IMG/VR virus record: IMGVR_UViG_3300017432_000006
Coordinates: 1-64,000 of that record
Length of the DNA: 64,000 nucleotides
Origin: a virus
Taxonomy: Duplodnaviria > Caudoviricetes
Reading direction: 5' to 3' (one strand)
The translations under genes were made by a program, and so were the position numbers. Position 1 is the stretch's first letter; each line of letters begins with the position of its first letter. This document shows positions 56,990 to 64,000 of this stretch, piece by piece. The notes below the pieces were generated by a model. The model was given only the letters and a program-made list of their open reading frames with translations. It did no database searches and was not told the DNA's origin.

Positions 56990-57336
56990 ACGACAGACAA
57001 CTATTAGTACTGGCACTTAACCAGTTAGAAAATCTTGTCGCTATTCATAACTCAGTCGAGTTCGATGACCAAGTAGACATTGATTTGCAGGCAAAGGCAG
57101 TTAAGACGTTTACGGCATATGTCGAGAACGTACGCGCCGCGGCGGGATTGTGTGTAACAGGGTGCGATGATGATTGTGAGTCCCTATGTCACGAAGAGCA
57201 CGAAATCGCTGGGATCGCCCATAAGACAGTAGCAGCAACAATGAGACTAGTAAACATTAACGACGAAGGCCAGTACAACTCTACTATCGAGAATCAGTTG
57301 AGAACGCTAGAAGAACTGCTGGCTAACCTACTCTAA
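56986..57336 (+). CDS. Hypothetical protein (last plus-strand gene)
   Basis: 116 aa with a CVTGCDDDCESLCHEEH Cys cluster. Confidence 0.6.
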   Translation: MNDRQLLVLALNQLENLVAIHNSVEFDDQVDIDLQAKAVKTFTAYVENVRAAAGLCVTGCDDDCESLCHEEHEIAGIAHKTVAATMRLVNINDEGQYNSTIENQLRTLEELLANLL

Positions 57337-57455
57337 CCGGGGCTTCGTTACCAATTTGTTACCTAATTTGCAGATTCAAAATTTTAGTATGCGGGAATTA
57401 CTAACGGATGGTGTCTGGAAAGCATAAAAGGCATTTCCAATTAGTGCGCACATAA

Positions 57456-57483
57456 GAGCAGTTTTAATTCATGCTCAGGAATT
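57456..57483 (-). ncRNA. Post-stop H-type pseudoknot element, copy 1
   Basis: AAUUC-CUGAGCAU-GAAUU-AAAAC-UGCUC. Confidence 0.7.
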
Positions 57484-57487
57484 GTTT

Positions 57488-57649
57488 TCAGTTGATTCGC
57501 GCCCCCGGAAGAAAGTCATTCATTCCGAAAGTAGAAACCCAACCATCCTCCATCGTGAATGTGATTGTCTCACCATCAAAAGAAACAACGGCCTGAGTAA
57601 CCTTGAATCCGCTGATGATATCACCAACGAGAATCTGCGAAGCCTTCAT
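57488..57649 (-). CDS. Small beta-barrel-like protein (53 aa)
   Basis: Hand translation MKASQILVGDIISGFKVT...; AAAGGA RBS. Confidence 0.7.
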   Translation of the reverse strand: MKASQILVGDIISGFKVTQAVVSFDGETITFTMEDGWVSTFGMNDFLPGARIN

Positions 57650-57677
57650 TTCAATTCCTTTGTTCGATGGGGAGGGG

Positions 57678-57706
57678 TGGGAAGTTTAAAGACATTCCCA
57701 GGTCTT
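57678..57706 (-). ncRNA. Post-stop H-type pseudoknot element, copy 2
   Basis: AAGAC-CUGGGAAU-GUCUU-UAAAC-UUCCCA. Confidence 0.7.
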
Positions 57707-57716
57707 AGAACTTAGA

Positions 57717-57950
57717 TCAGAGGAACTTGCCGGAAGCGGTGAGAAGCATTCCGCAAGAAACGCACTTGTGAGCCCCAACAGAAGCCTTGAAGTGCATATC
57801 CCCACCACACTTACAGGTCTCCGTACCGTGCTCACCAGAGCGCGTGTACTCGTCACGGATAGCGGCCACCTCATAGCCGTGCTCATCCGTACCCGCGTAG
57901 GTGGTGTGGGCGCGAGCAACAGCGGCGGCGAACCAGGGGTTGTGCTTCAT
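57717..57950 (-). CDS. Zn-ribbon protein (77 aa)
   Basis: MKHNPW...CKCGG...HKCVSCG; start set by cassette RBS GGAGAGG. Confidence 0.7.
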   Translation of the reverse strand: MKHNPWFAAAVARAHTTYAGTDEHGYEVAAIRDEYTRSGEHGTETCKCGGDMHFKASVGAHKCVSCGMLLTASGKFL

Positions 57951-58022
57951 GACTGCCTCTCCGTTGGGGGACCCTCCCCCTTCCTTGTGCCTTAAGTCTA
58001 TGGCATACAGGCACAGTGTCAA
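57951..58022 (-). promoter_or_regulatory. Early promoter-leader cassette A
   Basis: TTGACA-16-TAGACT ... ACAAGGAAGGGGGAGGGTCCCCCAACGGAGAGGCAGTC-ATG. Confidence 0.75.
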
Positions 58023-58043
58023 GCCCAAACAGCAAAATCCCCA

Positions 58044-58078
58044 ATGAATTTTCATGCATGGGTGTGCATGATCATGCA
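58044..58078. promoter_or_regulatory. CATG double-palindrome element, copy 1
   Basis: ATGAATTTTCATGCATG...GCATGATCATGC. Confidence 0.7.
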
Positions 58079-58087
58079 GTGTCCGTA

Positions 58088-58218
58088 ATGTCCGATTTGT
58101 CCCTTTTGCCCTAGAGTGACTGCTGGCACTTTCAGAATGTCCGTTTTGTCCCTGCCAGGGTCAATGTCCGATTTGTCCCCCGCCCCATGGGCGGTATCCC
58201 ATATGTCCGTTTTGTCCT
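58088..58218. repeat. Four 16-bp direct repeats ATGTCCG(A/T)TTTGTCC(C/T), iteron-like
   Basis: Copies at 58088, 58137, 58164, 58203. Confidence 0.85.
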
Positions 58219-58292
58219 AGGTTGTACTGATATATCCTGACATATCGTGATTTGGCCCTGTTGTCCCTTTACCACAAAGGCCGGGGATGGTG

Positions 58293-58321
58293 AGGGTAGT
58301 TTAGCCACATACCCTAGGTGG
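58293..58321 (-). ncRNA. Post-stop H-type pseudoknot element, copy 3
   Basis: CCAC-CUAGGGUAU-GUGG-CUAAAC-UACCCU. Confidence 0.65.
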
Positions 58322-58326
58322 TAGTA

Positions 58327-58467
58327 TCACAGATTCCAGATAGATTCGATTGTCTCTAGCGTAGCCTCATAAGCCTCAGCCTCTTTGATGTTTCCTTCCT
58401 CCCGGCATTCCTCAGCACACTCAGAAATCATCTTGTGAAGCCGGTTAGCCTTTTCGTCAAAAGCCAT
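58327..58467 (-). CDS. Small acidic helical protein (46 aa)
   Basis: Hand translation MAFDEKANRLHKMISECAEEC...IWNL. Confidence 0.65.
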   Translation of the reverse strand: MAFDEKANRLHKMISECAEECREEGNIKEAEAYEATLETIESIWNL

Positions 58468-58503
58468 TGTTTGTCCTGTCTGTGAGAAAGGGCGGGGGAT
58501 TGG

Positions 58504-58532
58504 TGGGCAGTTTTACTACTTACCCAGGTAGT
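58504..58532 (-). ncRNA. Post-stop H-type pseudoknot element, copy 4
   Basis: ACUAC-CUGGGUAA-GUAGU-AAAAC-UGCCCA. Confidence 0.7.
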
Positions 58533-58537
58533 CCTAA

Positions 58538-58711
58538 CTAGGAAGCGATACGGACGATGCGACGGCGGGTGATCTGGAACTTAGAGATGCAGTTATCACC
58601 AGTAAGGGTAATCACCTTCCCCGTCTCCATGGAACGTGCCTCACCGTAACCCAGGAATTCGAAGTGCTCGCCATTGGTGTAACGGATGAGGACGGTACCG
58701 ACGGTCTTCAT
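58538..58711 (-). CDS. Hypothetical protein (57 aa)
   Basis: MKTVGTVLIRY...; start set by cassette B. Confidence 0.65.
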   Translation of the reverse strand: MKTVGTVLIRYTNGEHFEFLGYGEARSMETGKVITLTGDNCISKFQITRRRIVRIAS

Positions 58712-58784
58712 GATTCCCTCTCCGGTTGGGGTCTTTCCCCTCCCTGTAAGCACCATGGTAGTAGGGGTTGGGGGAGTCTGTCTA
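58712..58784 (-). promoter_or_regulatory. Early promoter-leader cassette B
   Basis: TAGACA-18-TACCAT ... ACAGGGAGGGGAAAGACCCCAACCGGAGAGGGAATC-ATG. Confidence 0.75.
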
Positions 58785-59260
58785 CTCGAAACGGCAAGAT
58801 TTTTGTACTGACTTTTGTACCGGGTCACCGCCCGCAGGGTGGTTGCGTGTTCAACCAAATGTGTTGTGTGAGAATGGTTTTCAGCAATAGTGGAAACGGC
58901 GGGTGTTAGTCAGGGTTAGTCATATCCCTAATGTAGTAACTAACAGAGGTGTATTCCCTAGACAAAGAATTGCGGTACTCAATTGCAGCGGCATGTGTAT
59001 CGAATGGTCCATACACATCAGCAGGGTATCCATAAATGGTAGCGACAATGCAGCACATGCGGTAAATCCTTTCGTTTTGTGGGGTATTTGCGGAATTAAT
59101 TGCGGAAAATGGCCGAATTTGCGGAAAAAGGGGCGCTATATGTAAAAAACCAATGCCTAAAAATCGGCTGTCACAGAATTTTTGTTCAACAATTCATTTT
59201 TGTCACATGAATGCTAACCTTGTTCATCTACACGTTCGGTGCGCTATATCTTCGACCTTT

Positions 59261-59449
59261 TCAGTAAACCGTCCGGTAGTCCGTTATCTCTATCACTGTG
59301 GTATGTACTTCAATAGGATCGCTAGGGGTTGCTATCTCTTCCCGCGTCTCCCGCGCCGCCTGTAATGTTGGGTATTGCTGCCCACCGAACCAAATGCTTT
59401 CTTGTCTCACTGTGGGACGTTTGCTGTAAGTGCTTTCTATCTCATTCAT
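59261..59449 (-). CDS. Hypothetical protein
   Basis: MNEIESTYSKRP...; TGATG overlap with the upstream micro-ORF. Confidence 0.6.
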   Translation of the reverse strand: MNEIESTYSKRPTVRQESIWFGGQQYPTLQAARETREEIATPSDPIEVHTTVIEITDYRTVY

Positions 59450-59592
59450 CAAACCCCGCCCGTCCGGCTGTAGTCGAATAGCGCCTTCTCTAGATACTTA
59501 CACATATCACGATACTCAATTAAGTTCTTTCGTGCTTCGTAAAAGGTGTGTAGTGCAAAATACTCTGAATCATTGTTAATAAGGCTTGCCAC
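59449..59592 (-). CDS. Hypothetical protein (47 aa), paralog of 59682..59840
   Basis: Hand translation MASLINNDSEYFALHTFY... Confidence 0.55.
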   Translation of the reverse strand: MASLINNDSEYFALHTFYEARKNLIEYRDMCKYLEKALFDYSRTGGV

Positions 59593-59593
59593 T

Positions 59594-59680
59594 TCAACCC
59601 CGCGCCTTTTCTACATTGACACCAGTAACAATGAATCCGTAGGCAATGTTCTCCCGAGTCTCAATCTCTTCAACATTCAT
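59594..59680 (-). CDS. Micro-ORF (28 aa)
   Basis: MNVEEIETRENIAYGFIVTGVNVEKARG, tightly coupled on both sides. Confidence 0.45.
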   Translation of the reverse strand: MNVEEIETRENIAYGFIVTGVNVEKARG

Positions 59681-59681
59681 T

Positions 59682-59840
59682 TCAACCCCGCGCCTCATCG
59701 TAGTTGTCAATAGCCGTAGCGACCATCATTCGCATATCCCGCACATCATCCCGGCGCATTCCGTCAAGCATTCCGAGGAACATCTTTGCAGCGTCATACT
59801 CAGCGTCATTGTTGATGAATGCCCTAGGCTGATAAACCAT
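59682..59840 (-). CDS. Hypothetical protein (52 aa)
   Basis: MVYQPRAFINNDAEYDAAKMF... Confidence 0.6.
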   Translation of the reverse strand: MVYQPRAFINNDAEYDAAKMFLGMLDGMRRDDVRDMRMMVATAIDNYDEARG

Positions 59841-59841
59841 C

Positions 59842-59928
59842 TTAACCCCGCCGATTCTTGAGAATGTCCCTAATGTCAAGCAATAGCCAACAGATAACCA
59901 CTAGCAGAAAGAAGATACCAACGTCCAT
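59842..59928 (-). CDS. Single-pass membrane micro-protein (28 aa)
   Basis: MDVGIFFLLVVICWLLLDIRDILKNRRG. Confidence 0.55.
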   Translation of the reverse strand: MDVGIFFLLVVICWLLLDIRDILKNRRG

Positions 59929-59965
59929 CCTAACCCCGCCTTTTCGTTGTTGTGCGCTATTGGTG

Positions 59966-59996
59966 TGGGCCTTTTACCGACAATGCCCAGGTCTAT
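59966..59996 (-). ncRNA. Post-stop H-type pseudoknot element, copy 5
   Basis: GAC-CUGGGCAUU-GUC-GGUAAAAG-GCCCA. Confidence 0.6.
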
Positions 59997-60000
59997 TCAC

Positions 60001-60162
60001 TTACTTGTCCCAACGAATGTTCGTCTTAACCCATTCACGCATTCCCTCGTCACCCTCAGAAAGCATCTTCTCATAAAGGTCAATCATTGCGGCCTGATAG
60101 CCATTCATGTGCCACTTTGTCTGAGTAGTACCATTGGGGGCGTAAGCGGGAACAACGCGCAT
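60001..60162 (-). CDS. Hypothetical protein (53 aa)
   Basis: Hand translation MRVVPAYAPNGTTQTKWHMNGYQAAMIDL... Confidence 0.65.
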   Translation of the reverse strand: MRVVPAYAPNGTTQTKWHMNGYQAAMIDLYEKMLSEGDEGMREWVKTNIRWDK

Positions 60163-60201
60163 TGTTTCGGCCTTTTCTGTGAATGGTGCCGGGGTTTTGG
60201 T

Positions 60202-60233
60202 GGGGCCTTTTAGAATGTCATGCCCAGGACATT
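60202..60233 (-). ncRNA. Post-stop H-type pseudoknot element, copy 6
   Basis: AAUGUC-CUGGGCAU-GACAUU-CUAAAAG-GCCCC. Confidence 0.7.
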
Positions 60234-60240
60234 TGCTGAA

Positions 60241-60405
60241 TCAGTAAACAGTGACGAACAAATCACGCTGACGGTGAATCCGCTGAGTCTTTCCGTCAGC
60301 CGCAACAAAGAGGATCGTAACAAAGTCACTGTAACGGTGCGCGGCGGTCACCGTACCCTCATCGATGACGTCCCCGGCCTCAAGGTCCCAAACGATCTTC
60401 TTCAT
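60241..60405 (-). CDS. Small beta-barrel-like protein (54 aa), paralog of 63299..63478
   Basis: Hand translation MKKIVWDLEAGDVIDEGTVTAAHRYSDFVTILF... Confidence 0.7.
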   Translation of the reverse strand: MKKIVWDLEAGDVIDEGTVTAAHRYSDFVTILFVAADGKTQRIHRQRDLFVTVY

Positions 60406-60479
60406 GATTCCCTCTCCGTCCGGGGGACGTTCCCCCTTCCTTGTAAGACCTAGCGTACACCATCTAGGGGCGTGGTCAA
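60406..60479 (-). promoter_or_regulatory. Early promoter-leader cassette C
   Basis: TTGACC-16-TACGCT ... ACAAGGAAGGGGGAACGTCCCCCGGACGGAGAGGGAATC-ATG. Confidence 0.7.
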
Positions 60480-60515
60480 CCCCAAACCGCGCGGGTCAGT
60501 GTGACGTGCATCACA

Positions 60516-60662
60516 TCACGGACGGTCAACGAACCTAACCGTAAATTCCTCCGTATCATTAGACTTACTGACATTCTCATAAGCATCATCAATGTCGTCA
60601 AAGGGCCCGGTAATTCCGAGAATAAAAGCGTTCTTTGCGTCCTGCTTAACGATAACGTACAT
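60516..60662 (-). CDS. Hypothetical protein (48 aa)
   Basis: Hand translation MYVIVKQDAKNAFILGITGPFDDIDDAY... Confidence 0.6.
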   Translation of the reverse strand: MYVIVKQDAKNAFILGITGPFDDIDDAYENVSKSNDTEEFTVRFVDRP

Positions 60663-60670
60663 TCTACTAA

Positions 60671-60883
60671 TCACTCACCCTCACGATAGACAATGGTGTC
60701 GGAAGTGTCATACTCGGGAACACGAACAGGATTCATCCAAATGCTGCGTCGAACGTCAGCATTCCTTGACAGCAATTCATCACGCAATCCCCGCCGGGCG
60801 GCAATCAAAGGGCCTACACAATCGCGCGGGACTCGAACGTGCCAGATACCAAAACCGTTAGCCCAGGTGGTAACCATCGTCAT
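60671..60883 (-). CDS. Hypothetical protein
   Basis: 70 aa, AGCAGGA RBS. Confidence 0.65.
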   Translation of the reverse strand: MTMVTTWANGFGIWHVRVPRDCVGPLIAARRGLRDELLSRNADVRRSIWMNPVRVPEYDTSDTIVYREGE

Positions 60884-60908
60884 TCCTGCTTTCTTTGTAG
60901 GTAATGGT

Positions 60909-60938
60909 GGGGCCTTTTACAGACATGCCCGGGTCTAT
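60909..60938 (-). ncRNA. Post-stop H-type pseudoknot element, copy 7
   Basis: AUAGAC-CCGGGCAU-GUCUGU-AAAAG-GCCCC. Confidence 0.7.
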
Positions 60939-60948
60939 TGTTCGGATA

Positions 60949-61254
60949 TCACATAAAACGCATCATTGCACGGTCAAGACGAGCCATCTTCTCATCGAAA
61001 GACAGTTCGACACTGGCAAGAATCATTGCGCGATAACGGGCGCCGATCTTTCGGTTGGTCTCCCGCGCGTCCCGCGCCGCCCACTCAGCCTGCCGCGCGC
61101 TAGCCACCGTGGCGCACGTTCCAGCGTGGTCCCCACGGCTGTAGTAACCAGAAGCGTACTCAGCGGAGAGGTTAACCGTAGCACCGAAGCACGTTCCGAC
61201 CATGGTGCCACACTCAGCGCACGCCCGGACACTGTGAACACGATTCGTCGCCAT
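60949..61254 (-). CDS. Hypothetical protein with CxxC
   Basis: MATNRVHSVRACAECG...; start set by cassette D. Confidence 0.7.
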   Translation of the reverse strand: MATNRVHSVRACAECGTMVGTCFGATVNLSAEYASGYYSRGDHAGTCATVASARQAEWAARDARETNRKIGARYRAMILASVELSFDEKMARLDRAMMRFM

Positions 61255-61325
61255 GGTGCTCCCTCCCGGTAGGGTCCCTCCCTGCCGTTGGGTCAAGTAT
61301 AGGCACGGCAGGGAGGGGCGGTCAA
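61255..61325 (-). promoter_or_regulatory. Early promoter-leader cassette D
   Basis: TTGACC-18-TATACT ... ACGGCAGGGAGGGACCCTACCGGGAGGGAGCACC-ATG; the spacer is complementary to the leader over 13 bp. Confidence 0.8.
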
Positions 61326-61358
61326 CCCGAACGAACAACTACTTTGGGTGACTGCCGA

Positions 61359-61718
61359 TCACTCAAAGTCAAACGAGGGACGACGAATGCTGTAACCGGC
61401 AATTCGGTAATCGGGAAGCCCGGCAATCTGAGAAAGCACAGAATCAACCTCGAAAACATCGAGCCAACCGATAACATCACCAGTGACCGGGGTTCCATAG
61501 GTAATGTCACCATCCTCATTCAGAACAGCAATCTCCCAAAGACCATCCCGACCACCATAACTACCAGAGTGAGAAATGATAGAAGCGGCAAAACCGTTCT
61601 CAAAAAGAATGACAATTCGCTTACTGTTGGGAATGCCGTCAATAGCGCCCGCCTCAATCACAACACCATTGTTGTGAAGGGTAAGCATGTTTCCGGTGAT
61701 GGTGGCGAGAGCAGACAT
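61359..61718 (-). CDS. Conserved phage hypothetical protein
   Basis: FENGFAASII...SYGGRDGLWEIAVL...YGTPVTGDVIGWL, a widespread phage family. Confidence 0.8.
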   Translation of the reverse strand: MSALATITGNMLTLHNNGVVIEAGAIDGIPNSKRIVILFENGFAASIISHSGSYGGRDGLWEIAVLNEDGDITYGTPVTGDVIGWLDVFEVDSVLSQIAGLPDYRIAGYSIRRPSFDFE

Positions 61719-61749
61719 TGTTTTTCCTTTCCAAGAATGGCCGGGGGAT

Positions 61750-61777
61750 TGGGCCTTTTTGTATCTTGCCCAGGATA
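61750..61777 (-). ncRNA. Post-stop H-type pseudoknot element, copy 8
   Basis: UAUC-CUGGGCAA-GAUA-CAAAAAG-GCCCA. Confidence 0.65.
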
Positions 61778-61783
61778 TTTAGA

Positions 61784-61921
61784 TCAGTAGCAGTGAATGC
61801 ACTCGTGATCGGGGTTACCAATCGCGGCAATGCAATCCATCATCCCGAAGAAGTCATCAGCGTGCTCATCCTCGGGACCGAACTTTGCCGGGTCATCCTC
61901 GAAGTCAAAGTCAAAAGCCAT
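61784..61921 (-). CDS. Acidic Cys/His mini-protein (45 aa)
   Basis: MAFDFDFEDD...DCIAAIGNPDHECIHCY; start set by cassette E. Confidence 0.65.
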   Translation of the reverse strand: MAFDFDFEDDPAKFGPEDEHADDFFGMMDCIAAIGNPDHECIHCY

Positions 61922-61997
61922 GATTTCCTCTCCGGTCCGGGGGTCCGTCCCCCTTCCTTGTGTCTTTAGAGTAAGCCATGGGGAGGGGTAGGTGCAA
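61922..61997 (-). promoter_or_regulatory. Early promoter-leader cassette E
   Basis: TTGCAC-18-TACTCT ... ACAAGGAAGGGGGACGGACCCCCGGACCGGAGAGGAAATC-ATG. Confidence 0.75.
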
Positions 61998-62016
61998 GCC
62001 GAAACCGAAGATTTTT

Positions 62017-62058
62017 CCCATGAATTTTCATGCATGGTGGCGCATGATCATGCATGGG
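62017..62058. promoter_or_regulatory. CATG double-palindrome element, copy 2
   Basis: CCCATGAATTTTCATGCATGG...GCATGATCATGCATGGG. Confidence 0.7.
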
Positions 62059-62068
62059 CCGGGGAGGT

Positions 62069-62096
62069 TAGGCAGTTTATTCACATACCTAGGTGA
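62069..62096 (-). ncRNA. Post-stop H-type pseudoknot element, copy 9
   Basis: UCAC-CUAGGUAU-GUGA-AUAAAC-UGCCUA. Confidence 0.65.
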
Positions 62097-62101
62097 GAAT
62101 G

Positions 62102-62524
62102 TCACCCAAAGAAATCCGGCAGGGCAACCGGGTCATTCATGGTGCCATTCTTGAAGTTGTAAAGCACCCAAGCCGTGCGACCATTCCCGTCAGTGAACGG
62201 GTGAATCCAAAGAAACTCCTTAATCCATTCATCGACAGTAAGGTCATTGCCATGCACGATAAGGCCAGAAACAAGCCGAACAACATCAGCGGCATTTGCA
62301 GCCGTACCACCATTGGCAAAGGTAACCGGCGTCTTTCGGTAAACCCCGCCATTGTCCGGCTCAACAATACCGGCAAGAATAGCGATGCTGCCCATCGTGA
62401 TATCGGCGGGAGAAAGCGAAGAAGCGTACTCGTAACCCCGAATCAGTGTCCAAAGGCGCTCAATTCCAACGTGCTGCCGCTCGCACTCAATAGCAGCCGC
62501 AGAAGCAATCGCGTGAATGTTCAT
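62102..62524 (-). CDS. Fic/Doc-family protein (minimal)
   Basis: YRKTPV...HPFTDGNGRTAW Fic motif. Confidence 0.85.
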   Translation of the reverse strand: MNIHAIASAAAIECERQHVGIERLWTLIRGYEYASSLSPADITMGSIAILAGIVEPDNGGVYRKTPVTFANGGTAANAADVVRLVSGLIVHGNDLTVDEWIKEFLWIHPFTDGNGRTAWVLYNFKNGTMNDPVALPDFFG

Positions 62525-62558
62525 CGAATTCTCTTTCTGTCGTTTTCGGGAATGGGTG

Positions 62559-62588
62559 TGGGCCTTTTAACATCATGCCCAGGATGTT
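62559..62588 (-). ncRNA. Post-stop H-type pseudoknot element, copy 10
   Basis: AACAUC-CUGGGCAU-GAUGUU-AAAAG-GCCCA. Confidence 0.7.
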
Positions 62589-62592
62589 TGAA

Positions 62593-62736
62593 TCAAGCCA
62601 TAGAACGGAAGTCAACCATGTGGGTAAGATTTCCATTCTGAATCTTGCACCAGCCAAAAACAAATTCAATGACAGTACCGGTGCGAGTCATTCCCGAAAG
62701 GTCGCGCCCGACGATCTTGTCACCAATGTTCGGCAT
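62593..62736 (-). CDS. Small SH3-like protein (47 aa)
   Basis: MPNIGDKIVGRDLSGMTRTGTVIE...; start set by cassette F. Confidence 0.65.
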   Translation of the reverse strand: MPNIGDKIVGRDLSGMTRTGTVIEFVFGWCKIQNGNLTHMVDFRSMA

Positions 62737-62810
62737 GATTTCCTCTCCGGGGGAAGGTCCCTCCCTCCCCCTGCAAGCACAAGGGTAACGGTCTGGGGGA
62801 GGGTTGTCTA
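62737..62810 (-). promoter_or_regulatory. Early promoter-leader cassette F
   Basis: TAGACA-17-TACCCT ... GCAGGGGGAGGGAGGGACCTTCCCCCGGAGAGGAAATC-ATG. Confidence 0.75.
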
Positions 62811-62828
62811 CTCGAACGGCAACTTTTT

Positions 62829-62866
62829 CCCATGAATTTTCATGCACGACCATGCATGATCATGCG
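62829..62866. promoter_or_regulatory. CATG double-palindrome element, copy 3
   Basis: CCCATGAATTTTCATGCACGACCATGCATGATCATGCG. Confidence 0.7.
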
Positions 62867-62891
62867 CGACGCTGAGTGTCTTTGATCCTCG

Positions 62892-63077
62892 TTACTTCTT
62901 CCTGTAAGACGCGCGAATGATGACGATAGCGGCAACAATACCGATAACGAGATTGACACCAATAGGCATCATGACAACCGCCGGGGATAGGGTGAACATC
63001 GTCAGAATACCGGCAATGATCATACCAGCGAAAACATAGCACCCAACAATAATGATACCGGCGGCTGTATTGCTCAT
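62892..63077 (-). CDS. Two-helix membrane protein (61 aa)
   Basis: MSNTAAGIIIVGCYVFAGMIIAGIL...IVIIRASYRKK; start moved from the track value. Confidence 0.65.
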   Translation of the reverse strand: MSNTAAGIIIVGCYVFAGMIIAGILTMFTLSPAVVMMPIGVNLVIGIVAAIVIIRASYRKK

Positions 63078-63081
63078 TGTA

Positions 63082-63234
63082 TTAAACCCAATCGCTAACG
63101 GTGCGGGAAACCTTGACGTAGGAATAGTTGCCCATTCCAGCATACTGATTGACGTAGTAATCAGCCTGTGACTCGTCAAGACAAGGAAGAATGCTGTCGC
63201 CATTGATTCGCTTAACGCCCCACTCAGTACGCAT
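63082..63234 (-). CDS. Hypothetical protein (50 aa)
   Basis: Hand translation MRTEWGVKRING...VSRTVSDWV; AAAGAGG RBS. Confidence 0.65.
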   Translation of the reverse strand: MRTEWGVKRINGDSILPCLDESQADYYVNQYAGMGNYSYVKVSRTVSDWV

Positions 63235-63265
63235 GATTCCTCTTTCTGTTGTTGTTCAAGAATGG

Positions 63266-63298
63266 TGGGCAGTTTCTATTCATGCCCAGGAATAGAAA
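63266..63298 (-). ncRNA. Post-stop H-type pseudoknot element, copy 11
   Basis: UUUCUAUUC-CUGGGCAU-GAAUAGAAA-C-UGCCCA. Confidence 0.7.
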
Positions 63299-63478
63299 TC
63301 AGGAATTTCCCATTTCGAAAACCGTCAGCATCACATCCCGAAGAAAGCACTCACGACCGTTAACACCATCATTGGTGAAACGAACATCAACAAACTCACT
63401 GTATCGGTAAACAGCGGTAACGGTACCGTATCCCATGACAACATCACCGATAGTCAGAGACTGTGCATCCTTGAACAT
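63299..63478 (-). CDS. Small beta-barrel-like protein (59 aa), paralog of 60241..60405
   Basis: Hand translation MFKDAQSLTIGDVVMGYGTVTAVYRYSEFVDVRF... Confidence 0.7.
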   Translation of the reverse strand: MFKDAQSLTIGDVVMGYGTVTAVYRYSEFVDVRFTNDGVNGRECFLRDVMLTVFEMGNS

Positions 63479-63549
63479 GATTTCCTTTCCTGGCCGGGTC
63501 CCTCCCTGCCGATGTGATAAACCTATGCCCTGCCCGCTAGGTCTGTCAA
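63479..63549 (-). promoter_or_regulatory. Early promoter-leader cassette G
   Basis: TTGACA-18-TAGGTT ... ATCGGCAGGGAGGGACCCGGCCAGGAAAGGAAATC-ATG. Confidence 0.75.
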
Positions 63550-63654
63550 CCCGAAACCCAAGAAACTTTGTACCAATTTTGTACCAACCAAAAATCCATC
63601 CTACGGGCCGGTAGGCTGAGTGTGTACCTACCTACCGGCCTGTTCCTGGGACCC

Positions 63655-63999
63655 TCAGAGAGCGGCTACAGCGTGCCTAGCGCGTGCCTCATCAATGGGC
63701 AGGGGATAACCCGAGGAAGTACGGGAAAGGAAATCATCGGAACCCTTATCATAAGGCGTCAGCATATCGGCATCAAGAGCAAACAGATATGCCAGGAAGA
63801 ATCCCCAAGAATCATAGGTGGCAGCATAGTCAAGGGAATAGCGGTCAACATTCTTTGCAGTACCGGCATTAACGCGCCTCTTTGAATGGGTCCCGTCACC
63901 GATCAACTTAACGGTAATGCCATTCTTGCGCTTAGTGCTACCGTGCCAATCGAAATCATCAAGAATGACCTTACCGTGCCCGGCATTTCGCGCAGCATA
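63655..63999 (-). CDS. Hypothetical protein (5' end outside the window)
   Basis: Frame open to the window edge; G.STKR.N.I.V.L.GD...RR.NAG...AATYDSWGFFLAYLF..DAD pattern. Confidence 0.65.
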   Translation of the reverse strand, partial: YAARNAGHGKVILDDFDWHGSTKRKNGITVKLIGDGTHSKRRVNAGTAKNVDRYSLDYAATYDSWGFFLAYLFALDADMLTPYDKGSDDFLSRTSSGYPLPIDEARARHAVAAL

Positions 64000-64000
64000 C

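Follow-up and report, generated by a model that had tools for sequence, protein, structure and literature searches.

Related pseudoknots and the element in the phage contig

The coremin motif (xrRNA-C) and its Watson-Crick variant (xrRNA-WCC) are small, autonomous RNA folds of beny-, cucumo- and other eukaryotic RNA viruses (Dilweg et al. 2019, 2023: PMC6546385, PMC10520033, PMC10321173). These RNAs stall Xrn1 and ribosomes. The Watson-Crick variant still gives about 30% -1 frameshifting in a rabbit reticulocyte lysate assay without its second hairpin, and the screen that found it read frameshifting in E. coli colonies (PMC10321173, PMC10520033). Other compact H-type pseudoknots include the luteovirus-type frameshifting pseudoknots (BWYV, PEMV-1, ScYLV), the MuLV read-through pseudoknot and the preQ1-I riboswitch aptamer (Rfam RF00522). 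Class 1-3 exoribonuclease-resistant RNAs (flavivirus, dianthovirus, polerovirus, ST9a; PMC11702639) are 45-70 nt, with extra helices that close a ring around the 5' end. Bacterial and phage mRNAs are also stabilised at their ends by plain hairpins, such as the 5'-terminal stem-loop of ompA and the REP and terminator hairpins at 3' ends.

We examined repeated elements in a 64,000-nt window of a 72.9-kb viral contig (IMG/VR record IMGVR_UViG_3300017432_000006). Each element is a 27-30 nt H-type pseudoknot with a variable P1 of 3-6 bp, an 8-9 nt loop (C-U-GGGC-A-U), an A-rich linker ending AAAC or AAAAG, and a strand that pairs with the loop. Like coremin, it is small (about 20-30 nt for both), autonomous and found in UTRs and intergenic regions, with a short first stem whose top pairs are typically G-C, U-A and C-G, and GUC...GAC is among the commonest P1 variants in phages. 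In both, the loop begins with a pyrimidine (C) and ends A-(A/U), the A-rich spacer ends ...UAAAC (GUUAAAC in coremin), and the bases right after the spacer pair with the loop. However, loop position 2 is U in 96% of phage copies, where coremin requires G (YGAD / YGNNAD), and L1 is C, not the G needed in xrRNA-WCC. P2 consists of 5-6 Watson-Crick pairs in an 8-nt loop, as compared to 3 pairs or non-canonical contacts in a 4-6 nt loop. The phage element also lacks the second hairpin that coremin needs to stall Xrn1, is anchored to stop codons, and is found in bacterial hosts, which have no Xrn1. It works like a coremin at best and is not a member of that group.

The size and topology (short S1, one-base L1, A-rich L3 in the S1 minor groove) match those of the luteovirus-type and MuLV pseudoknots, as does the spacing of 5-9 nt to the codon in the ribosomal A site. 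The phage element, however, follows ordinary stop codons of all three kinds at many genes, shows no in-frame extension beyond the stop, and also occurs before tRNAs and in tandems without ORFs. The preQ1-I aptamer is likewise an H-type pseudoknot, of about 34 nt, with a short P1, a loop-to-tail P2 and an A-rich L3. No covariance-model hit to it was obtained even at E up to 10, L2 is one variable base instead of the ligand-reading loop, the element is not in 5' leaders of queuosine genes, and there are many copies per genome. The mRNA end-stabilisers are also cis-acting folded RNAs at cistron boundaries that set differential stability within operons, but they have no conserved sequence, whereas this is a conserved pseudoknot with invariant unpaired bases shared across phyla. 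In the class 1-3 resistant RNAs, as here, a loop-to-3'-strand pseudoknot is essential, and A-minor contacts stabilise it. Rfam contains no match to the element, and no paper describing it was found.

Fourteen copies on the minus strand

The preliminary description reported eleven covarying pseudoknots of about 30 nt, each 0-10 nt after a stop codon, and this observation was confirmed. Reading of the minus strand and a descriptor scan recovered exactly the 11 copies; the start values given previously are the low (plus-strand) coordinates, that is, the 3' ends of the elements. A covariance model built from the copies scored them at 34-50 bits (E 2.5e-8 to 6e-13), and the next best hit in the 64-kb window had E = 1.1. 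Three further copies, all on the minus strand, lie beyond the window in the same contig at 64721-64766, 67590-67634 and 69366-69411, and the true count is therefore 14. Every copy in the window follows a stop codon by 0-10 nt, and the tails are C-rich and G-poor.

All window copies are on the minus strand and are described here in the order of transcription. The copy at 63266..63295 (44.2 bits, E 2.3e-11) has P1 CUAUUC/GAAUAG, extendable to 9 bp, loop CUGGGCAU, L3 AAAC and P2' UGCCCA; it follows the TGA of ORF 63299-63478, and the next ORF starts 31 nt after it. The copy at 62559..62588 (49.5 bits, E 6e-13) has P1 AACAUC/GAUGUU, loop CUGGGCAU, L3 AAAAG and P2' GCCCA; it starts 4 nt after a TGA and lies upstream of the Fic/Doc-like ORF 62102-62524. 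The copy at 62069..62096 (39.8 bits) has P1 UCAC/GUGA, loop CUAGGUAU, L3 AUAAAC and P2' UGCCUA, with one G-U pair. It starts 5 nt after the TGA of the Fic/Doc-like ORF and is terminal in its operon, being followed by a 51-nt repeat box and the next promoter. At 61750..61777 (42.3 bits), P1 is UAUC/GAUA, the loop is CUGGGCAA, L3 is CAAAAAG and P2' is GCCCA; this copy starts 6 nt after a TGA, and ORF 61359-61718 starts 31 nt after it. At 60910..60938 (43 bits), P1 is AUAGAC/GUCUGU, the loop is CCGGGCAU, L3 is AAAAG and P2' is GCCC; this copy starts 10 nt after a TGA and is followed by ORF 60671-60883. At 60203..60233 (42.5 bits), P1 is AAUGUC/GACAUU, the loop is CUGGGCAU, L3 is CUAAAAG and P2' is GCCC; this copy starts 7 nt after a TGA and is followed by ORF 60001-60162.

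The copy at 59966..59993 (34.2 bits) has the short P1 GAC/GUC, a 9-nt loop CUGGGCAUU, L3 GGUAAAAG and P2' GCCCA; it starts 7 nt after a TAA, and a run of small overlapping ORFs follows. The copy at 58504..58532 (44.3 bits) has P1 ACUAC/GUAGU, loop CUGGGUAA, L3 AAAAC and P2' UGCCCA, with one G-U pair; it starts 5 nt after a TAG and is followed by ORF 58327-58467. At 58293..58321 (40.7 bits), P1 is CCAC/GUGG, the 9-nt loop is CUAGGGUAU, L3 is CUAAAC and P2' is UACCCU, which is compensatory against GGGCA/UGCCC. This copy starts 5 nt after a TGA and is terminal in its operon, with 17-nt iterons and the next promoter following. At 57678..57706 (45.7 bits), P1 is AAGAC/GUCUU, the loop is CUGGGAAU, L3 is UAAAC and P2' is UUCCCA (a compensatory C-G to A-U change); this copy starts 10 nt after a TGA, and ORF 57488-57649 starts 28 nt after it. 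The last copy, at 57456..57483 (37.9 bits), has P1 AAUUC/GAAUU, loop CUGAGCAU, L3 AAAAC and P2' UGCUC, a compensatory G-C to A-U change that is the commonest variant in other phages. It starts 4 nt after the TGA of the last gene of the leftward early block, and nothing on this strand follows because the region is convergent with plus-strand genes. Where an ORF follows a knot in this phage, it starts 28-40 nt after it.

Covariation, placement and distribution

Both helices covary. On the 11 copies, 87.6% of cells pair, as compared to 66.8% in shuffles and 31-38% with slid partners, and four of 5 P1 pairs and 3 of 6 P2 pairs show changes on both sides. In an alignment of 140 family members, 87.6% of cells pair, against 70.3% in shuffles and 27-40% with slid partners, and pair 16-40 is A-U 76 / G-C 63. 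In a scan of IMG/VR that left two P2 positions free on both sides, 124 of 125 hits with P1 of at least 3 bp were complementary, in 9 different combinations. G-U pairs occur in both helices, so the sense RNA strand is what is selected. Of 65 loci with at least 2 copies, 53 have them all on one strand, and neighbouring ORFs are co-directional in 106 cases, against 4 with opposite-strand ORFs on both sides.

In 270 family members, 37% have the stop of an ORF of at least 40 codons 3-10 nt before P1, as compared to 3.5% at random positions. Almost none lie at 0-2 nt, the mode is 5-6 nt, and a tail runs to 40 nt. This sharp lower bound with a decaying tail fits an element that must not be unwound by the terminating ribosome but otherwise lies as close as possible. 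Copies lie 2-13 nt in front of tRNA genes in 11 metagenomic cases, against 2 after tRNAs within 150 nt, and likewise in phages Molivia and NMeng1. They also occur in tandem 16-120 nt apart with no ORF between.

Two narrow patterns found more than 200 IMG/VR stretches with the element, and cultured carriers include Mycobacterium phage Labelle, Arthrobacter phage Molivia and Staphylococcus aureus phietaviruses. Copies occur in phages of Actinobacteria, Firmicutes, Cyanobacteria, Alpha- and Gammaproteobacteria and in Bacteroidota-associated crAss-like phages, and in bacterial genomes of many phyla. They flank ORFs of many functions. In three unrelated Firmicute phages the knot sits just before the scaffold/major-capsid genes, where mRNA levels must step up, and in other phages it follows major head, Hsp20 and SSB genes.

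The interpretation in the preliminary description was partly supported. A compact H-type fold with an A-rich L3, the absence of a preQ1-I or other Rfam match, the location at gene ends and operon ends, and the undescribed function all held, and its list of options (3'-exonuclease block or mRNA stabiliser, processing site, terminator/antiterminator, protein or small-ligand binding site) includes the readings we rank highest. Its proposal of a phage-wide element acting on early transcripts was not supported as worded. The element is not a device of this phage or of early transcripts, since it occurs in hundreds of unrelated phages, in late (head) operons of Staphylococcus, Lactobacillus and Geobacillus phages, directly in front of tRNA genes, in ORF-free tandems and in bacterial chromosomes. 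Small-ligand and terminator roles look unlikely.

A possible barrier at cistron boundaries

Our tentative reading, held at somewhat less than even confidence, is a protein-independent roadblock or punctuation element. What the sequence analysis establishes is the fold, the strand, the placement relative to stop codons, starts and tRNAs, and the breadth of the family; the barrier function is inferred. In this view, each element is transcribed as part of the leftward early operons of a large siphophage, a distant relative of the ~130-kb Streptomyces Stanwilliamsviridae, and folds on its own in the RNA. The fold comprises a short, sequence-free P1 closed by C-G, a one-base L1 (C), a 5-6 bp G/C-rich P2 between the hairpin loop and the downstream strand, a one-base L2, and an A-rich L3 placed to lie in the minor groove of P1. 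The element sits at the first position past a stop codon where a terminating ribosome no longer has to melt it, and can therefore stay folded on a translated message. It would halt or hinder enzymes that travel along RNA, such as exoribonucleases, 5'-end-dependent RNase E/J and stray ribosomes.

Independence from one partner protein or gene class is suggested by the range of carriers, flanking genes, tRNA-proximal sites and tandems, and a barrier-type architecture by the stem (G)UC/GA(C), the loop that starts with C and ends A-U, and the linker ...UAAAC, which resemble coremin and its Watson-Crick variant. Several findings weigh against this reading. Generic frameshifting pseudoknots (BWYV, MMTV, IBV, SRV-1) do not stop Xrn1, and coremin needs a second hairpin to do so (PMC10321173), while the tails of the phage element are no more structured than controls. 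A plain hairpin would suffice against most 3' exonucleases, so the conserved knot is not explained by 3' protection alone. No single polarity fits all cases, as 3 of 11 window copies end an operon with nothing downstream to protect and, conversely, some family members have no upstream ORF. The knot also occurs in hosts without RNase J, namely a Vibrio phage and a Pseudomonas genome. Comparisons of convergent and divergent neighbours, and of host range on bacterial genomes, gave noisy or underpowered results on polarity. Within this explanation we only slightly favour a 5'-to-3' barrier, protecting the RNA downstream, over protection of the upstream ORF from 3'-to-5' attack.

The leading rival, though unlikely, is a ribosome-directed element. 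The knot would sit at the mRNA entrance of the ribosome terminating at the stop codon, and could stop read-through, frameshifted or post-termination scanning ribosomes from entering the next cistron, tRNA or terminator (translational insulation), or tune termination or re-initiation. The stop-to-P1 spacing (mode 5-6 nt, range mostly 3-12) matches that of recoding pseudoknots, the closest studied analogue without its second hairpin is a strong ribosome obstacle but not an exonuclease block (PMC10321173), and coremin blocks scanning ribosomes (PMC10520033). In this phage, junctions are either overlapping or coupled, or they carry a knot plus their own SD, and in a conserved bacterial 25-codon ORF the UGA lies inside the knot. 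However, tandem copies without an ORF between them and copies without an upstream ORF occur, the spacing distribution has a long tail rather than a narrow peak, and there is no in-frame extension beyond the stop (median 9 codons, against 5 and 6.5 in the other frames). Read-through and scanning are also rare events, so the selective benefit is not evident.

A putative processing signal is somewhat less likely. The knot and its G-poor single-stranded tail would position an endoribonuclease (RNase E, Y, III or P, depending on the host) to cut the polycistronic RNA at gene boundaries, and the knot would then cap one of the products. Consistent with this, the knot lies at gene boundaries, the 10 nt after P2' are unstructured and G-depleted (6-13% G against 21.6% background), and the sites 2-13 nt in front of tRNAs are where RNase P cuts. 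In S. aureus, RNase Y cleavage of the sae operon is determined by a downstream element (PMC5449607). On the other hand, the hosts span phyla with different endonucleases, yet the knot is nearly identical, and no conserved cleavage motif beyond A-C-Y-U was seen.

A binding site for a trans factor, either a conserved host or phage protein or, as in a riboswitch, a small ligand, giving one common control input to many cistrons, is improbable. Unpaired positions are invariant or nearly so (loop C1 100%, A7 100%, AAA in L3 100%), and the topology is that of preQ1-I aptamers. However, L2 is a single variable base and P1 and P2 abut, so there is no obvious pocket. The 14 copies in one phage lie behind unrelated genes, carriers are unrelated phages, no shared neighbouring protein family was seen apart from lineage-specific ones, and there is no Rfam hit.

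A pause, terminator or anti-terminator signal for the host RNA polymerase is very unlikely. Three window copies end operons that have no canonical terminator, and 9% of family members are followed by a T-run. Most copies, however, lie inside operons in front of the next SD, none of the 14 copies has a U-tract, terminator-like sites follow only 7 of 182 classified family members, and the phage has ordinary hairpin-plus-U terminators without the knot elsewhere in the same region. A DNA-level cassette boundary for recombination and mosaic exchange is the least likely reading and is already disfavoured by the covariation. Although the conserved 27-bp sequence marks module boundaries in many unrelated phages and whole intergenic cassettes (knot plus tail plus SD) are 65-76% alike between some copies, P1 differs in every copy but always pairs, P2 changes are compensatory, G-U pairs are tolerated that would be A-C mismatches on the other strand, and the orientation follows the genes.

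If the barrier reading is correct, the knots would define stable ends of mRNA segments in polycistronic RNA, and would insulate neighbouring cistrons, tRNAs or small RNAs from each other.

Copies of the pseudoknot and covariation of its two helices

Read on the minus strand, positions 57300-64000 of the window form a run of small early-type operons. A repeat search found seven copies of a conserved promoter-proximal leader, SD and start module (family D1), at 57944-57970, 58705-58731, 60399-60425, 61248-61274, 61915-61941, 62730-62756 and 63472-63498 (minus strand), which mark seven transcription units. The module reads …CCCC(N)GGAGAGG(A/G)AAUCAUG, and each copy is preceded by a G-run/C-run hairpin (for example GGGGGACNNUCCCCC, family D7) and a TTGACA-type promoter, so that every early operon starts with a 5'-proximal hairpin. 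Three copies of a 51-nt box with internal palindromes (minus-strand reading GCATGATCATGC…CATGCATGAAAATTCATGGGAAAAA), at 58027-58077, 62003-62053 and 62815-62865, each lie just upstream of an early promoter and are a candidate operator for a phage or host regulator. Four direct 17-nt iterons, AATGTCCG(A/T)TTTGTCCC, spaced 27-49 nt apart, were found at 58087-58218, and a second cluster of the same motif lies about 12 kb away in the contig (contig 70279-70459; 14280-14460 of the contig locus L001). These are origin-like or partition-like, or a repressor array.

Eleven elements lie behind ORFs in these units, with the anatomy given in the preliminary description: a P1 of 3-6 bp (up to 9) that differs in sequence in every copy, an 8- or 9-nt loop C-U-GGGC-A-U, the 3' strand of P1, a linker ending AAAC or AAAAG, and a strand of 4-6 nt that pairs with loop positions 2-7. 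The start positions in that description are the low + strand coordinates, that is, the 3' ends of the elements. A covariance model (R1) built from an alignment of the 11 copies (A1) scored them at 34-50 bits, and the next hit in the 64-kb window had E = 1.1. The window is part of a 72,856-bp IMG/VR contig, in which three more copies were found beyond the window at contig positions 64721-64766, 67590-67634 and 69366-69411, again on the minus strand and after stop codons. The reported repeats were thus confirmed, and the evidence for them was strengthened.

Within the phage, 87.6% of pair cells were standard pairs, compared with 66.8% for shuffled partners and 31-38% for partners slid by 1-3 columns. 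Four of five P1 pairs and three of six P2 pairs changed on both sides. Covariation of P2 in homologues, which had been set beforehand as a test of the fold, was examined in two ways. First, IMG/VR was scanned with a pattern that fixes the flanks but leaves the two central P2 positions free on both strands (CCTGNNCATG…AAACTGNNC), which returned at least 120 stretches. Of 125 distinct hits with a P1 of at least 3 bp, 124 had both free pairs complementary, in nine combinations (AG/CT 89, AA/TT 9, GG/CC 9, GA/TC 8, GT/AC 4, GC/GC 2, CG/CG 1 and two with G-U), where chance would give about 14%. Second, a 140-member family alignment made with R1 (A4) gave 87.6% paired cells against 70.3% shuffled and 27-40% slid, and a covariation score of 0.487 against 0.163. 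Pair 16-40 was split A-U 76 / G-C 63 with one mismatch. G-U pairs were tolerated in both helices, which together with the constant orientation relative to genes points to the sense RNA and not to DNA. Nested folding found only P2 (-5 to -10 kcal/mol). P1 lies inside the P2 loop, so the two helices can coexist only as a pseudoknot.

Distribution and placement of the family

The pattern CCTGGGCATG-N4-8-AAAAGGCCC alone was found in 84 stretches of IMG/VR, where about 2 are expected by chance. The same pattern was found in 87 stretches of one-genome-per-species bacterial contigs; about 35 of these have a proper P1, and the rest are coding coincidences with gaps of 4 or 7 and no P1. A descriptor scan of 1.8 Mb of viral loci gave 291 distinct elements, against 28 in shuffled sequence. 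Short-query BLAST against cultured phages, checked with the model, identified as carriers Mycobacterium phage Labelle, Arthrobacter phage Molivia, about 85 S. aureus temperate phages (B236, phiETA, 55, 29, X2 and others), Lactobacillus phages (phiEF-1.1, phig1e, KC5a), Geobacillus phage D6E, Synechococcus S-EIVl, Nostoc NMeng1, Paracoccus, Lentibacter, Roseobacter and Rhizobium phages, crAss-like phages and a Vibrio phage.

BLAST of the region against cultured phages gave no match in near or distant mode, and neither did a second viral locus (L045). The phage of the window is a distant relative of the ~130-kb Streptomyces Stanwilliamsviridae, with 33% identity in a minor tail protein. The four cultured members of that family reached through the tail protein, Streptomyces phages Comrade, Coruscant, Blueeyedbeauty and NootNoot, have no copy at E <= 0.01. 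The element is therefore not inherited with that lineage, and its distribution is patchy and not lineage-bound.

In this phage the stop-to-P1 spacers of the 14 copies are 0-10 nt, mostly 4-7. Eight of the 11 window copies are followed by an SD and a start 28-40 nt after the knot. Three copies (62069-62096, 58293-58321 and 57456-57483, the last being the end of the whole leftward block) end their unit with no canonical terminator, while ordinary hairpin-plus-U terminators exist elsewhere in the same region without a knot. Junctions without a knot are overlapping or nearly abutting genes. A 140-aa Fic/Doc-like ORF at 62102-62524 (minus strand; HPFTDGNGRTAW) is bracketed by two of the pseudoknots. 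The tails in this phage are C-rich, and a CCAUUC(C/U) motif recurs 1-20 nt after P2' in 7 of 14 copies (those at 63266, 62559, 61750, 60910 and 60203, and at L001 8722 and 13367). Whole knot, tail and SD cassettes are 65-76% alike between some junctions (repeat families D5, D9 and D13), which suggests that the cassettes were duplicated as units.

In the family, 37% of 270 elements have the stop of an ORF of at least 40 codons exactly 3-10 nt upstream, against 3.5% at random positions. Almost none lie at 0-2 nt, the mode is 5-6 nt, and a tail runs out to 40 nt. An SD plus start lies within 60 nt downstream in 34%, against 14% at random positions, with a peak at 20-30 nt. Eleven metagenomic elements lie 4-13 nt in front of a tRNA gene, tRNA-Asp in 7 of the 11, against two behind one. 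Molivia shows the same arrangement (L299 401-511; SSB, knot, tRNA-Gly, 2 nt apart), as does NMeng1; loci in which the knot lies 2-13 nt in front of tRNA genes are L299, L304, L026, L045, L180, L192, L193, L249 and L270. The knot is often preceded there by a ~340-aa PHROG-1221 protein of unknown function. Tandem elements 16-120 nt apart, with no room for an ORF, also occur, and some flank small conserved non-coding stretches. The same ~40-nt non-coding stretch (…UCGCCAGGCUGAUUAGGGCGAUCA…) lies between two pseudoknots in two different viral contigs (L222 and L270) and may be a small structured RNA bracketed by the knots.

In S. aureus phietaviruses, the single copy lies between the minor head protein and scaffold genes (L297 1492-1530 in phage B236), just before the scaffold gene of the head operon, and in B236 and B122 it is annotated as a BPROM 'promoter' (P5R). 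Lactobacillus phiEF-1.1 and Geobacillus D6E carry their single copy at the equivalent pre-scaffold position; the loci with this arrangement are L297, L301 and L302. Elsewhere the knot follows major head, Hsp20 and SSB genes as well as that of the PHROG-1221 protein. In Peptococcaceae, Desulfitobacteriia and other bacterial MAGs (L090 5540-5650, minus strand, with the same arrangement in L138, L145, L163, L165, L144, L170, L103 and L097), a conserved 25-codon ORF (MFTKHWMLREIAHCKEGCSTKSWA) ends with its UGA inside the pseudoknot (the CAUGA of loop and P1), and a strong terminator hairpin follows. This looks like a small-peptide or leader-peptide gene coupled to the knot, in a chromosomal setting.

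Comparison with described RNA families

The P1 closing pair was C-G in 251 of 290 copies, although the search patterns fixed this pair in most hits; the second pair was U-A or A-U in 88% and the third G-C in 44%. A short first stem (hp1) with a C-G closing pair is shared with the coremin motif (xrRNA-C). The coremin loop follows YGAD or YGNNAD, with G required at loop position 2 (PMC10520033), whereas the loop here is C-U-(G/A)(A/G)G-C-A-U, with C1 in 100%, U2 in 96%, A7 in 100% and mostly U at position 8. The first base Y and the last two bases A-D do fit. Coremin has a conserved spacer GUUAAAC after hp1. The linker of the phage element always contains AAA and ends AAAC (67%) or AAAAG (33%), that is, C-U or A-G before G-C-N-C; UUAAAC, AUAAAC and UAAAAC are common, but the 5' part is free.

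No counterpart was found of the second hairpin (hp2) that coremin requires directly downstream for Xrn1 resistance. The 30-nt tails had a mean MFE of -2.39 kcal/mol, against -2.97 for controls, and a hairpin started within 3 nt in 48 of 280 cases, against 54 in controls. The base after P2' is A in 64% (pairing with U2), and the next ~10 nt are G-depleted (6-13% G against 21.6% background). RNAalifold on 10 cassettes of this phage predicted only P2, with no conserved tail structure and no pairing of tail to SD. Mimicry of a tRNA acceptor was also considered, since ACCA lies 0-3 nt after P2' in 6 of 14 copies, but was rejected as a family feature because the family consensus is A-C-Y-U at no fixed offset. 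The Watson-Crick coremin (xrRNA-WCC) has an antiparallel Watson-Crick S2 between the hp1 loop and the bases after the spacer. The covarying P2 agrees with this but is 5-6 bp rather than 3, and L1, which must be G in xrRNA-WCC (G5A and G5C lose function; PMC10321173), is C in 100% of copies. Checked against these papers and the family logo, the resemblance was mixed, and the element is not a member of coremin. Class 1-3 xrRNAs have a ring or slipknot topology with the 5' end threaded through it, a feature of the 3-D structure (PMC11702639).

The element is also not a preQ1-I riboswitch (RF00522). The family model gave no hit at the gathering score in 64 kb and none at E up to 10 in 6.7 kb. Where preQ1-I has a ligand-reading L2 with a conserved C, in the 5' leader of queuosine or transport genes, L2 here is one base (U in 82%, otherwise any base), and the copies follow stop codons of unrelated genes. 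The stop-to-P1 spacing (mode 5-6 nt, bulk 3-12 nt) agrees with the about 5-9 nt of recoding (-1 PRF or read-through) pseudoknots, but no extension ORF was found: the median distance to the next in-frame stop was 9 codons, against 5 and 6.5 in the other frames, and on this ground the element is not a recoding signal. It is not an intrinsic terminator, as none of the 14 copies has a U-tract, 25 of 270 family members have a T-run, and the canonical terminators of the phage are separate sites.

Rfam 15 has no model for the element. Searches at the gathering score over the whole window and at E up to 10 over the region gave only a chance-level Corio-PBP hit at 57944-58021 (19.5 bits against a gathering score of 63.5, E 5.7), which lies on a leader hairpin and not on the knots. 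Full-text literature searches found no description of the element in phages, although a catalogue of 10,006 candidate structured RNAs from IMG/VR (PMC10690425) may contain it unnamed. The element is a compact H-type pseudoknot, a kind known from viruses, and belongs to a very large undescribed family.

Inferred function of the element

The preliminary description read the repeats as a phage-wide RNA element acting on early transcripts, with a 3'-exonuclease block or mRNA stabiliser, a processing site, a terminator or antiterminator and a protein or ligand binding site as options; this interpretation was supported only in part. The repeated pseudoknot was established by the analysis, whereas its function, including any stalling of exoribonucleases or ribosomes, is inferred. 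The sharp lower bound of the spacer fits the position of the ribosome's helicase site, reported to lie about 11 nt from the first P-site base (Takyar et al. 2005), which leaves about 4 nt beyond an A-site stop codon. In this view the knot begins where a terminating ribosome no longer needs to open it, and the decaying tail of the distribution argues for 'as close as allowed' rather than for a fixed contact. A fold that must stay closed, conservation across phyla, no shared partner gene, and use in front of ORFs, tRNAs and small RNAs alike together argue for a self-contained structural role that uses only universal machinery.

The architecture is that of pseudoknots that resist 5'-to-3' unwinding, in that P1 is short and weak, is backed by an A-rich L3 and is stacked on a G/C-rich P2. 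The sequence resembles coremin (GUC-CGAA-GAC-GUUAAAC-UAC) and its Watson-Crick variant, which stall Xrn1 and ribosomes. The variant keeps about 30% -1 frameshifting in a rabbit reticulocyte lysate assay without its second hairpin, and the screen that found it read frameshifting in E. coli colonies. We therefore tentatively favour a barrier or punctuation function, although it is somewhat less likely than not on present evidence and no polarity is assigned to it. The architecture, the pre-scaffold positions and the tandem arrays speak for a 5'-to-3' barrier, whereas the terminal copies with nothing downstream and the copies after highly expressed genes speak for a 3' role tied to the upstream ORF. 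Against exonuclease resistance as such, generic frameshifting knots do not stop Xrn1, coremin needs a second hairpin that the phage element lacks, and some hosts have no RNase J.

As a test of polarity, a comparison of convergent with divergent neighbours gave 13 against 3, but several of the 'convergent' cases have a small same-strand gene downstream, and the ratio was not relied on. For a link with RNase J in the host, a search of 150 genomes each with covariance model R2, in which only 41 candidates per genome were scored, gave 3 weak hits in Gammaproteobacteria and 7 hits in Clostridia, 3 of them strong, and a pattern scan of 400 genomes each gave a sparse 4 and 0 hits beyond the centre genome. 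One of those genomes (G042) is unpublished, and no claim here rests on it.

Of the alternatives, a ribosome-directed role is unlikely but survives best, followed by a processing signal, which is somewhat less likely. Binding of a factor or ligand is doubtful, a transcription signal more so, and a DNA-level boundary is the most remote.

A more far-reaching possibility, unlikely but not excluded, is that the element is the bacterial-virus counterpart of the exoribonuclease-resistant RNAs of eukaryotic RNA viruses. It would be a 27-nt, protein-free, directional roadblock that stops bacterial 5'-to-3' decay (RNase J, 5'-end-tracking RNase E) and stray ribosomes, used by phages of most bacterial phyla to cut long transcripts into separately stable, insulated units, and it would be either convergent with or related to the plant-virus coremin knot.

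Even if the function proves different, a family this large and this conserved that is missing from Rfam deserves a model and an experiment, and tractable carriers exist in Mycobacterium smegmatis phage Labelle, Arthrobacter phage Molivia and S. aureus phietaviruses. If the knot is a barrier, it would give genome annotators a cheap marker of cistron ends, and synthetic biology a 27-nt, host-independent insulator between genes. It would then be the first general exonuclease or ribosome roadblock motif described for phages and bacteria, would explain how many phages set different mRNA levels within one operon, and would link DNA phages and eukaryotic RNA viruses through one minimal RNA fold.
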